A DNA stretch of 5,461 nucleotides from a virus, in the IMG/VR virus record IMGVR_UViG_3300010288_000109, one strand, 5' to 3'. The notes beneath the pieces are model-generated. The model searched no databases, was not told the DNA's origin, and saw nothing but the letters and a program-made list of their open reading frames with translations. Positions 2,291-5,461 of the stretch are shown in pieces (the first letter of the stretch is position 1; each line of letters starts with the position of its first letter). The position numbers and the translations under genes were made by a program.

Positions 2291-2302
2291 TCGGTGGCGT
2301 CC

Positions 2303-3850
2303 ATGCGGTTCGTGCGTAGCTTTCTGCTCGTCGCGGCCTGCATGGCCGCTGCTGTTTCTCATGCTGCCCTGCGATGGCAGGGCGGCATCGATCAGGCGTC
2401 ACAGGGTGCTGCGGCGTATATCACGTCTCCGCAGGGACGGGTCGCCGGTCTTTTGTACTCTTTAGATCCGGTCGCGACCGGCTGGAGGCTCAATCGTCAA
2501 ACGGGCACGCTCGTGCAACTGCCGTTCCCGTTTCAAGGGGGATATGCGCCACTCCGTCCGGCGTCGGCGTATGGTATCAATTCGCCCGGCAAAGCGGCTG
2601 TCATCGATGTTCCTACTCGCATTACCGTCCCGGGTTCGTCGGCGACTCTTCCGGCTAGAATTATTGAACCTGTTGACCGTTCGACGTTGACCCGCATAAT
2701 TCCTAAAGCGGCGTCAAAATTGGCGCCTCTTATTCCGGTTATTGGTACGGGTTTTCTCATTTACGACGTTCTTCGTGATGTTGGTGTTGAGGTTACGCCA
2801 GACGGTAAATTCAAGGAAACTAGACAACCGTCGCAATATGTTTACGATCCAAACAATACTAGCCCACCGCATGAGACAACTAATCCTCCGCTCAATACAA
2901 TAATTCGTTATCAAAATTACTATTATCTAAGGGTTGCATATAGTCCAGTGGATTGTCCGGAGGGTCGCCCTCCTCCGCCGTGGGAACTCTGGATTGGCTA
3001 TTACCCCAACACTTCTCCGTGCCCAGGCGGTTGGTCGGCGATTTTTCGCGCTCCAGTTTCGTCGTTTACACCGCCGTCCTCGTCCGTTATCGTTCTAACG
3101 GAAAATCAAGTGATTGATAGATTGGCGAATATTCCAGATTCTGGCCTTATTGACGCTGTAAATCAATTACCTGATCATTCCGACGTTATTGACGTTATCG
3201 CGCGTGAGATCAAAGACGATTCGGAAGATGATCGGCTGATGTGGCCCTCGCCGGTCGGCGTGACACCGCCTTCGACAATCGTTGTCGGCGAACCCCGCAC
3301 CTCAACGGAAACCCTCCCGGATGGGTCGCGTCGCATCACGACGATTACCGATACGGCCACTATCACAGACGATATCGTCCAGTTCAACCGAAAAACCGAA
3401 GTCGTCACACAAGATTCGACCGGCCAGCCGACAGGGACGTCGCAGACGGTCAGCCCGGTCACGAATCCCGTCGACGCGAGTACTCCTCCGCAAACAGGCG
3501 AAGATATCGAGTGCGGTTTGCCCGGTTATCCTCCTTGCAAAATTGACGAAACAGGCACCCCGCCCCCGCCACCGGATGATGGGGAGGACAAGTTCAAGTC
3601 CGTTCTCCCGAACTGTCTTAGACAGGACTGGCGAAGCTGTTTCCCGCAACTCCCGGATATCAATTGGTCGTTCTCGTTGCCGTCCAGCTGCGGTCCGATT
3701 CCGGTTCCGTTCGGGAAGTACGGGTTCAGCGAGGTCAACATCTGCCCGTGGCAAGGTATGATTCACGATATCATGTCCATGTTGTGGGCGGCTGCGGGAT
3801 TATTTGGTGCTATCGGTATTCTGTCTGGACGCCGAAACTCTGAGGTCTAA
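2303..3850 (+). CDS. Adsorption / minor coat protein, pIII-like (515 aa).
   Basis: The signal peptide is MRFVRSFLLVAACMAAAVSHA. It is the largest ORF and sits directly after the coat gene. There is a Pro-rich linker (TGTPPPPPDDGED, about 3551-3589). The Cys-rich C-terminal domain has 6 Cys. The C-terminal anchor is MLWAAAGLFGAIGILSG followed by RR. Confidence 0.75.
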   Translation: MRFVRSFLLVAACMAAAVSHAALRWQGGIDQASQGAAAYITSPQGRVAGLLYSLDPVATGWRLNRQTGTLVQLPFPFQGGYAPLRPASAYGINSPGKAAVIDVPTRITVPGSSATLPARIIEPVDRSTLTRIIPKAASKLAPLIPVIGTGFLIYDVLRDVGVEVTPDGKFKETRQPSQYVYDPNNTSPPHETTNPPLNTIIRYQNYYYLRVAYSPVDCPEGRPPPPWELWIGYYPNTSPCPGGWSAIFRAPVSSFTPPSSSVIVLTENQVIDRLANIPDSGLIDAVNQLPDHSDVIDVIAREIKDDSEDDRLMWPSPVGVTPPSTIVVGEPRTSTETLPDGSRRITTITDTATITDDIVQFNRKTEVVTQDSTGQPTGTSQTVSPVTNPVDASTPPQTGEDIECGLPGYPPCKIDETGTPPPPPDDGEDKFKSVLPNCLRQDWRSCFPQLPDINWSFSLPSSCGPIPVPFGKYGFSEVNICPWQGMIHDIMSMLWAAAGLFGAIGILSGRRNSEV

Positions 3851-3853
3851 AAA

Positions 3854-4171
3854 ATGCCAGCCCTTGCTGCTTTGCTTGTCGGGTGGTTCACTCGGTTCTT
3901 CTCGTTTCTCGTCGCAGAGGTCGGCTTCAAGTGGGCAATTCGTATTACGATTGTTGCGGCAGTTGCGGCGGTTTACGTTGCCCTTGTGACGTTGTTCAAC
4001 ACGACAATTAGCCCGTTGATTTCGGCGCTGTTCGCCACGTCGTATGGAACCGTGATCGGTCTGGCTTTCCCGCCGATAGCAGGGACGGTCGTTACCGGTT
4101 TGGCGGTCCTCTGGGCGGCCAAAATTGGGTATTCGTACCTTGAGCGTATGGCGTCGTTGATCGTTGGGTGA
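3854..4171 (+). CDS. pVI-like small polytopic membrane protein (105 aa).
   Basis: GAGG (3841-3844) precedes ATG 3854. There are about three hydrophobic segments. It occupies the conserved position between the pIII-like and pI/Zot genes. Confidence 0.7.
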   Translation: MPALAALLVGWFTRFFSFLVAEVGFKWAIRITIVAAVAAVYVALVTLFNTTISPLISALFATSYGTVIGLAFPPIAGTVVTGLAVLWAAKIGYSYLERMASLIVG

Positions 4172-4174
4172 GTT

Positions 4175-4987
4175 ATGCCGATTTTTAGCGTGGAAGGAAA
4201 GCTTGGCACAGGCAAGACGAAGTTCGCGGTCTGGCAGGCCAAGCGCGCGTTGCTGCAAGGCCGTCGCGTCGCGTCGAACGTGGACCTGTACCTAGACAAG
4301 CTCGTCCCCCATAAGTCGGTGCATTACGTGCGTATTCCCGACAAACCCACGGCGGCTGATCTCGAGGCGGTAGGGCACGGTAACCCTGATAGCTACGATG
4401 AAGAACGTAATGGCGTCATGATCTTAGATGAATTGGGGACGTGGCTAAATGCCCGATCATTCCAAGACAAAGGCAGGGCGGCAATTCTCGATTGGCTCAT
4501 CCATGCCCGCAAACTCGGATGGGACGTGTACCTAATCGTTCAGGATTCCGGCATGATCGACAAACAGGTACGAGAGGCCCTCATCGAGTACCGCGTCAAG
4601 ATGTTCCGGGGCGACAAGATCAAAATCCCGGGCGTCGGCGGCATCCTCAATGACATGTTCGGTGGCCGCGTCGGCTACCTTCCCCGGTTTCATCTCGCGG
4701 TCGCGCGTGTCGGTGATGGCGTCAATTCCGTCGTCGCTGAACGCTGGATGTTTCGCGGTGACGATCTCCATGCGGCCTACGACACCCGCCAGGTGTTCAG
4801 GCCAGACTATCCGCACGGGTCTCATTCGGTGTGGTCGGCGGGGTTGCCTAAAAAACCGACTCTATTGGACCGCGTTGTCCAGGCGACAAAGGCGGTGTTC
4901 AAGCCGTCTCCACGATATAGACCTGTAACGATGTACTGGACGCCGACGCCACGTAACAAAATGCTATCACGTAGCGCGATGCGGTAG
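4175..4987 (+). CDS. Assembly ATPase, pI / Zot family (270 aa), apparently lacking the usual transmembrane and periplasmic C-terminal regions.
   Basis: Walker A is GKLGTGKT (4196-4219) and Walker B is VMILDE (4415-4432). From memory, blocks shared with Ff gene I protein include RIPDKP, DSYDE, LDE-GTW, HARKLGWD, VQD, DKQ and AYDT. No hydrophobic segment follows the ATPase domain. Confidence 0.85.
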   Translation: MPIFSVEGKLGTGKTKFAVWQAKRALLQGRRVASNVDLYLDKLVPHKSVHYVRIPDKPTAADLEAVGHGNPDSYDEERNGVMILDELGTWLNARSFQDKGRAAILDWLIHARKLGWDVYLIVQDSGMIDKQVREALIEYRVKMFRGDKIKIPGVGGILNDMFGGRVGYLPRFHLAVARVGDGVNSVVAERWMFRGDDLHAAYDTRQVFRPDYPHGSHSVWSAGLPKKPTLLDRVVQATKAVFKPSPRYRPVTMYWTPTPRNKMLSRSAMR

Positions 4988-5212
4988 AAATATTTTTTGG
5001 CACTCGTTTCGATGCGGTCATCGAATATCAGCATCCTCGGCGTCGCGCCGTCTTGATCCCGTCCGCGGAATCCATCTAGTCCCCCGATGTTCTCCTCGAC
5101 CTTTGTTCTCGCGTGCCAACAATGCAGGCGGTCCCCGGCGCGGCGCCGTCCGCGCCCGGAGCGCGTCGCAGGTCCGTACCGCGTGTGGTAGCGTCGTTGA
5201 CGGCTTGCTGTA

Positions 5213-5237
5213 GCGCGTCCCGATCCGGTGGACGCGC
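5213..5237 (+). other. Strongest intergenic hairpin: 8-bp GC stem GCGCGTCC / GGACGCGC with a 9-nt loop (CGATCCGGT).
   Basis: The perfect inverted repeat was read directly from the sequence. It is immediately followed by the G-rich tract. Confidence 0.6.
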
Positions 5238-5303
5238 GGAGGGGGACCGGGGGGGATACCGTGCGCCTGTATGACCGCGACTACTACCCAGCGGTTCAGG
5301 CTC

Positions 5304-5332
5304 TTGCATTGGAAACTCGCCTAGGGTATATT
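5304..5332 (+). promoter_or_regulatory. Sigma70-like promoter driving the SSB-first operon.
   Basis: The -35 is TTGCAT (5304-5309), followed by a 17-nt spacer and the -10 TATATT (5327-5332). It lies about 38 nt upstream of the SSB ATG (5370, equivalent to 32). Confidence 0.5.
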
Positions 5333-5338
5333 CCGGTC

Positions 5339-5461
5339 AACCCGTCGTGGGTTGTCACCGGAGCGAAAGATGATCAAAGTCGAAATCGAGTCCTCGGAAG
5401 TCCGCGAATACTCTGGCCATTCGAAGTCCACGGGTAAAGCGTACCATCTCCGCATTCAGAG
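5339..5461. repeat. Right copy of the exact 123-nt terminal direct repeat (identical to 1-123).
   Basis: Base-by-base identity with 1-123. Confidence 0.95.
5370..5461 (+). CDS. 5' part of the SSB gene again, truncated by the window end. It is the same gene as 32-322 after circularisation.
   Basis: It lies inside the terminal repeat and is identical to 32-123. Confidence 0.7.
   Translation, partial: MIKVEIESSEVREYSGHSKSTGKAYHLRIQ

Follow-up and report, generated by a model that had tools for sequence, protein, structure and literature searches.

A Filamentous Phage Lineage with a pI/Zot-Type Assembly ATPase Lacking the Membrane Anchor

Introduction

The pI protein, the marker common to all inoviruses, has been described as residing in the inner membrane and as linking its ATPase to the secretin through a periplasmic domain. 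In M13, one of the Ff phages (M13, f1 and fd), the membrane helix is formed by pI residues 254-270, the internal product pXI starts at M241, and K14 of the gene I protein is essential (PMC5408679). Here we describe the pI/Zot-type assembly ATPase gene of a virus represented by IMG/VR record IMGVR_UViG_3300010288_000109, a stretch of 5,461 nucleotides referred to below, at its full length, as the window; the 270-aa product of this gene has neither the membrane helix nor the periplasmic domain.

Zot-like proteins of inoviruses without pIV are described as membrane-anchored and as having a periplasmic C-terminal part. This organization was reported for CTXphi and VFJ (bioRxiv 10.1101/2022.09.21.508815). 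The Zot protein of CTXphi and the Zot-like proteins of the pIV-less Neisseria phages MDA/Nf, of Pf and of Xanthomonas phages have the Zot P-loop domain in common with the protein studied here, and no phage secretin is encoded with them; use of a host secretin is presumed for the V. cholerae and Neisseria phages (PMC10011098). Unlike those Zot proteins, the pI of the window lacks the anchor and the periplasmic part. In the largest inovirus survey, acceptance of a pI cluster as genuine required one or two transmembrane domains (TMDs), C- or N-terminal (Roux et al., 2019; PMC6813254), so that pI sequences without a transmembrane (TM) helix may have been under-counted or discarded.

The Assembly ATPase Ends at the Membrane Boundary

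Our analysis indicates that the 270-aa protein is likely the complete, native assembly ATPase of the phage, and that the joint absence of anchor, periplasmic domain and secretin is an architecture under selection throughout a lineage. Its gene (4175-4987, plus strand) was assigned from the open reading frame (ORF), Pfam, PHROG and BLASTP matches, and an AlphaFold2 model compared by Foldseek. The N-terminal ATPase domain is intact, as had been proposed in the first-pass annotation: the Pfam Zot family (PF05707) matches residues 4-151 (E=7e-24), and the sequence reads as Walker A GKLGTGKT at residues 8-15 (4196-4219) and Walker B VMILDE at residues 81-86 (4415-4432). G13, K14, D85 and E86 are invariant across 81 homologues, D85 and E86 corresponding to D88 and E89 of M13. 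The conserved cytoplasmic domain extends from residue 1 to approximately residue 222 (4175-4840), is predicted with a local distance difference test score (pLDDT) above 90, and has a ratio of non-synonymous to synonymous substitution rates (dN/dS) of 0.024 in comparison with L008, the genome encoding a 94%-identical protein. The model, built with the 81 homologues, has a mean pLDDT of 90.7 and consists of a Zot-fold domain, a helix at residues 230-242 and a poorly defined tail at residues 243-270. Its best Foldseek match in the PDB is 2R2A, the N-terminal domain of Neisseria Zot; a sequence search of the PDB with the same protein returned nothing relevant.

The closest described proteins are the pI of Ff, If1, IKe, I2-2 and the Erwinia phage PEar, which are 42-47% identical to it over the cytoplasmic part including the Walker motifs and a basic juxtamembrane helix. 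As in Ff, the gene directly follows the gene VI counterpart, and its product belongs to PHROG 1675, "morphogenesis (protein I of M13)", which matches residues 1-228 (E=9e-88); positions 229-353 of this 353-position profile have no counterpart in the protein. The proposed collinearity with Ff pI was borne out by BLASTP, which aligned residues 1-247 with M13 pI residues 1-253 at 42% identity. Since the M13 membrane helix begins at residue 254, the homology spans the basic juxtamembrane helix and ends one residue before the membrane.

Beyond this point the two proteins differ. Ff pI has 348 residues, including the TM helix and a periplasmic domain of ~78 aa with conserved cysteines, all of which are lacking in the 270-aa protein; moreover, no pXI product is possible, and no gene IV follows. 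With a 19-residue Kyte-Doolittle window and the usual threshold of 1.6 for a membrane helix, the maximum over the whole protein is 0.88 and that over the last 100 residues 0.53, in agreement with the earlier description of the C-terminus as hydrophilic and basic without a hydrophobic stretch. There is no N-terminal extension that could hold an anchor, as Walker A begins at residue 8. The protein ends 17 residues past the point aligned with M13 residue 253, which leaves no periplasmic domain, and a pXI-like internal product would comprise only the ~30 hydrophilic residues that remain past the position aligned with M13 M241. Thus, the protein is clearly homologous to pI/Zot and yet lacks three features by which the literature defines the family, namely the TMD, the periplasmic domain and pXI.

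The reading frame stops, as previously annotated, at the TAG at 4985-4987, and an extension of gene I by read-through or frameshift was rejected. Translation past the TAG yields only KYFLALVSMRSSNISILGVAPS before a TGA at 5054-5056, this 22-residue peptide not being a membrane helix, and neither of the other plus-strand frames contains a hydrophobic ORF there; on both points the initial reading of the sequence was correct. DNA homology to L008 runs just 14 nt beyond the stop codon (to 5001) and then breaks. A shift toward AT-rich composition noted from about 4845 is real, GC content falling from ~0.61 to 0.535 over 4801-5100, and it sets in at the C-terminal boundary of the conserved ATPase domain, near residue 222. 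It is, however, modest and not unique, dips of similar or greater depth being found at 2600-3300, 3700-4000 and 4300-4600.

Two elements make up the C-terminal end of the protein. The first is a cationic amphipathic helix, LLDRVVQATKAVF (residues 230-242; 4862-4900), delineated by the AlphaFold2 model and by alignments with M13 and If1. The mean pLDDT of the ten-residue block 231-240 is ~95, and the helix has a hydrophobic moment of 0.62 and a net charge of +2; by position its homologue in Ff is the juxtamembrane helix with which pXI begins (pI 238-253). The second, in the place of the TM helix, is a basic proline-rich tail with an aromatic motif, KPSPRYRPVTMYWTPTPRNKMLSRSAMR (4901-4984), modeled with low pLDDT (50-74). 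It carries a Tyr-Trp pair, and the net charge over residues 224-270 is about +10. The motif RP(V/S)(T/S)(M/L)YW(T/D)P is kept in the nearest homologues, the closest of which have the tail motif PSPRYRPVTMYWTP. In comparison with L008, the tail-coding end of the gene (4841-4984) has a dN/dS of 0.32 and a synonymous rate (dS) of 0.15 vs. 1.2 in the rest of the gene, which suggests either that the tail recently recombined together with the adjoining intergenic sequence or that an overlapping nucleotide-level constraint is at work. DNA-level homology to a Tepidimonas prophage (see below) ends at 4841.

Distribution of the TM-less Form

The whole genome is 100% identical to circularly permuted contigs in three further assemblies, ENA ERZ27245459, ENA ERZ1744544 and Logan SRR5214706. 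The best 120 homologues of the protein are 63-94% identical to it, 257-364 aa long and mostly encoded on contigs of 5.3-7 kb, and none of them reaches a Kyte-Doolittle value of at least 1.6 after residue 200; accordingly, the comparison of pI lengths that had been called for yielded no longer, TM-containing form among close relatives. The stop position and the tail motif recur in relatives at 77-94% identity. The first-pass annotation had named a general occurrence of short TM-less Zot homologues in the clade as evidence against its reading; such homologues turned out to be common there, and the anomaly is not a private one.

Some of the relatives are integrated. The prophage in Tepidimonas alkaliphilus YIM 72238 (NZ_VJNB01000001.1, about 404-421 kb; locus L001) encodes an 81%-identical pI of 266 aa with the same kind of tail in both tandem copies. 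At least two prophage copies are arranged there head-to-tail (3466-14832) with a period of 5697 bp, as in some integrative filamentous phages. Further integrated copies were found in Rubrivivax, Comamonadaceae and Burkholderiaceae genomes, indicating hosts from the Burkholderiales.

Of the nearest 149 clusters formed at 50% identity, ~45 have no hydrophobic window of at least 1.2, and 84 have a clear TM helix. The nearest clusters (40-68% identity) contain TM-less proteins of 250-320 aa, and the more distant ones contain proteins of 350-450 aa with a TM helix near residue 250. After 80 metagenomic loci had been added, 186 of 264 non-identical pI sequences were TM-less, and 164 of these 186 fell on one side of a single split in a neighbor-joining (NJ) tree of the ATPase domain. 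The C-terminal motif of most TM-less proteins is (K/R)PK.P.V......LPP(D/E)ER(I/W)....RL, and the window belongs to a smaller subclade of ~21-28 sequences ending in RP.(T/S)(M/L)YW.P. The genomes of the lineage are small, about 5.3-7 kb. Loss of the TM helix is ancient and lineage-wide.

Joint Absence of the Periplasmic Part and the Secretin

Some relatives have retained the anchor. In the uncultured L028, L029, L037 and L038 the ATPase domain is 60-69% identical to that of the window, and pI has 328-330 aa, with a TM helix near residue 245 and a periplasmic domain of ~65 aa. Directly after pI these four loci encode a protein of 413-416 aa, which contains the Pfam Secretin domain (PF00263) in the three tested (L028, L037 and L038); the copy in L029 is 99.8% identical to that of L028 (tblastn). 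They resemble the phage of the window in the ATPase, coat, pIII-like and pVI-like proteins, the latter three being homologous to those of TM-less genomes, and differ from it in keeping the TM helix, periplasmic domain and secretin. The secretin-bearing relatives fall inside the TM-less group in the NJ tree.

Where at least 1300 nt of sequence follow pI, a secretin gene adjoins it in six of six TM-bearing relatives (L028, L029, L037, L038, L092 and L100; verified by Pfam or tblastn) vs. none of 31 TM-less loci searched by tblastn (Fisher p = 4e-7). In the window itself tblastn with four secretin queries found no secretin gene, and the position of gene IV in Ff-type relatives corresponds to the intergenic stretch that separates pI from the gene V-like gene. 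As judged from these sequences, the TM and periplasmic part strictly accompanies an immediately downstream secretin gene across relatives. The alignments place the break precisely where the TM helix begins: TM-less L014 and TM-bearing L037 and L038 have the juxtamembrane helix W(L/V)xK(I/V)KEKYK in common and diverge at the first TM residue.

Alternative Explanations

The first-pass annotation had offered two explanations: a new arrangement in which the ATPase is soluble or recruited peripherally, or a lost or replaced C-terminus in a defective or helper-dependent element. The first is favored by our results, and the second found no support for this genome. A recent mutation, frameshift or misassembly that removed the 3' end of gene I and left the element defective is highly improbable. 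One piece is indeed missing, as a ~550-bp module present in L008, L001 and L010 is absent from this genome (junction at ~5288-5296), but that module lies outside gene I; the sequence recurs unchanged in three other assemblies, the stop and tail motif are found again in the 77-94% identical relatives and in the 81%-identical Tepidimonas prophage, and neither alternative frames nor read-through supply a TM helix. Dependence of the whole lineage on a helper is a different matter. Like satellite filamentous elements, its members could rely for export on the pI, pXI and pIV made by a canonical inovirus in the same cell, or could borrow no more than its pXI-like and secretin components. Ff cannot do without pXI, the membrane part, or without pIV (PMC5408679, PMC8563730), and both are missing here; possible helpers would be those relatives that have a TM helix and a secretin gene and belong to the same lineage by coat, pVI and ATPase. 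We nevertheless regard this as unlikely. Intact Walker motifs and very strong purifying selection on the ATPase are unexpected if pI is supplied by a helper, the TM-less lineage by far exceeds its TM-bearing relatives in diversity and in frequency of sampling (186 TM-less vs. 3 TM-bearing sequences inside the group), and no second inovirus was present within 8 kb of the inspected prophage loci.

The anchor could also be provided by a separate or fused phage product, which we consider quite unlikely. One candidate, an ORF starting with a DRDY/W motif and containing one TM helix, is located downstream of pI in L001, L002, L008, L009, L011, L022 and L031, and single-TM ORFs of ~40 aa overlap or abut the end of pI in the distant TM-less L019 (5749-5868) and L020 (1063-1191). 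Furthermore, the pVI-like gene (3854-4171) and pI (from 4175) are in the same frame, separated by TGA GTT (4169-4177), in the window, L008, L010 and L001. Against this, no small ORF is conserved over the whole lineage, the DRDY/W-TM ORF occurs in just ~7-8 of 54 TM-less loci, its copy in the window breaks off ahead of the TM helix, and the in-frame arrangement is absent in L009, L011, L013, L014 and M13. The DRDY/W-TM ORF, although a real gene family, was rejected on these grounds as the general missing anchor, as was read-through across the TGA at 4169-4171, an arrangement that is not conserved outside the closest subclade. As to the properties of these ORFs, the DRDY/W-TM ORF has no Pfam match, and one of two scanned copies showed a weak match to a PHROG of unknown function; the single-TM ORFs of L019 and L020 may have arisen by chance in GC-rich DNA; and read-through from pVI into pI would yield a membrane-anchored fusion.

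Several observations weigh against a native, unanchored ATPase and should be set beside the evidence given above. Well-studied inoviruses without pIV are generally taken to keep a membrane-anchored Zot; if this is so, the loss of pIV does not by itself explain the loss of the anchor. Ff requires pI as well as pXI (PMC5408679); their membrane function would have to be replaced here. The amphipathic signal is modest, the mean best hydrophobic moment across the clade being 0.52 vs. 0.42 +/- 0.20 in shuffled tails, and the high pLDDT of helix 230-242 may reflect packing on the ATPase domain in the model rather than contact with the membrane. TM helices were called by hydropathy alone (with a large margin below the threshold in the case of the 270-aa protein), secretins were searched by tblastn with four queries only, and the NJ tree carries no support values. 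Finally, the lineage is known from sequences, so that virion production by its members is presumed. In the collection of deposited phages, the best matches were Ff, If1, IKe, PEar and VFJ-type phages at 38-47% identity; no record aligned past residue 216 of a TM-less query, and no TM-less tail was covered, so the lineage apparently has no deposited phage genome. No near-identical DNA was found among deposited phages either. A TM-less pI was not found described in the literature, but our search coverage was incomplete, and this is absence of evidence only.

Genome Organization

The window comprises a circular genome of 5338 bp and a 123-nt exact terminal overlap, its first 123 bases being repeated at the end. 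According to the ORF list, Pfam, PHROG and hydropathy, all convincing genes are located on the plus strand in the inovirus order, starting with a gene V-like single-stranded DNA (ssDNA)-binding protein (14-322; Pfam Phage_DNA_bind), ORF73 (333-554) and a rolling-circle Rep (564-1451; Pfam REP_ORF2-G2P). These are followed by ORF111 (1444-1779), two small hydrophobic ORFs (within 1655-1977), the major coat protein with a signal peptide (within 1889-2290), and a pIII-like protein of 518 aa (2294-3850). Immediately 5' of pI there is a gene for a pVI-like multi-pass membrane protein of 105 aa (3854-4171), recognized by hydropathy, PHROG 17485 (E=6e-7) and a weak match to Pfam DUF5455. Hence pI follows the pIII-like and pVI-like genes within an inovirus morphogenesis module, in a genome that also has the gene V-like ssDNA-binding protein and Rep. 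The intergenic region that separates pI from the gene V-like gene is 364 nt long (4988-5351, not assigned to a strand), 5352 being equivalent to position 14 after the circular wrap.

ORF111, which has a signal-peptide-like N-terminus (MRELLGVLPLLLGYFSASHA/DA), had been suggested as a possible partner of the ATPase. It matched no Pfam or PHROG family. A homologue occupies the same position in the close relatives L008 and L010, and other small secreted or lipoprotein-like ORFs take this position in more distant genomes; ORF111-like genes are thus not conserved across the lineage. With no known family and a gene at its position that differs between genomes, ORF111 was set aside as a candidate partner of pI. 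A minus-strand ORF over the tail-coding region (4822-5034) is probably spurious, as the corresponding L008 region covered (from 5600) contains no minus-strand ORF of at least 30 aa.

In the intergenic region, a block at ~5125-5290 with a GC content of ~0.70 hardly varies among five genomes, although their genes share only 72-87% DNA identity. The block probably serves as origin, as packaging signal or as both, or else as an attachment site; shuffled sequence is predicted to fold just as stably (z = -0.34). In relatives, the block and gene V are separated by the ~550-bp module mentioned above (compare L008 6344-6523, L001 ~8960-9135 and L010 741-1296), which encodes a small one-TM protein beginning with M(G)LYDRDYY and, on the minus strand, a repressor-like protein of ~128-140 aa. 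The window has kept only the first codons of the small gene (GTG at 5261, YDRDYY at 5270-5287; region 5261-5296), joined to unrelated sequence leading into gene V. Because the deleted form is 100% identical in the three other assemblies, it represents a circulating repressor-less genotype and not an artefact. Right after the deletion junction and just 5' of gene V, a sigma-70 promoter-like sequence was recognized by eye at 5308-5336 (TTGCAT, a 17-nt spacer, TATATT).

Proposed Mechanism and Implications

We propose that gene IV would form, together with the 3' part of gene I, one contiguous envelope-spanning module, following the VI-I-IV gene order of Ff. Its loss in a single deletion, or its exchange as a block, would be the simplest account of the distribution described above. 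The remaining ATPase would act as a peripheral protein at the inner membrane, the candidates for its attachment being the cationic helix 230-242, the strongly basic aromatic tail and/or contacts with the pVI, pVII/pIX-like and coat proteins. The filament could then cross the outer membrane via a host secretin, as assumed for other inoviruses without pIV (PMC10011098). Judging by sequence, peripheral recruitment of the ATPase to the membrane and export via host components is probable. Evidence that the helix or the tail itself binds the membrane is weak; DNA or a protein partner would be an equally plausible ligand of the basic tail. An analogy, with no homology implied, is offered by peripheral ATPases of the MinD/FtsA type, which have a C-terminal amphipathic membrane-targeting helix: as in MinD, a P-loop ATPase is followed here by a short, predicted cationic amphipathic helix near the C-terminus.

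A bolder generalization can be put forward only tentatively. A large inovirus lineage may export its filament without any phage-encoded membrane-spanning assembly component, using a soluble or peripheral motor whose tail would be a docking peptide for a host inner-membrane platform, such as that of type II secretion or the type IV pilus, and for its secretin; the TM and periplasmic domain of pI together with pIV would then be one dispensable, exchangeable module. If the tail does dock, it would do so in two forms, RPVTMYWTP here and a helix with (K/R)PK..LPPDERI in most relatives.

In a diverse lineage under selection that has kept the motor and not the anchor, pXI or pIV, nature has dissected the inovirus assembly machine, which suggests that the membrane-spanning part serves coupling to the secretin and not filament assembly as such. 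This idea is testable, given a genome of 5.3 kb and a prophage in a named Tepidimonas alkaliphilus strain. Pipelines for the detection of inoviruses should not demand a TMD in pI.

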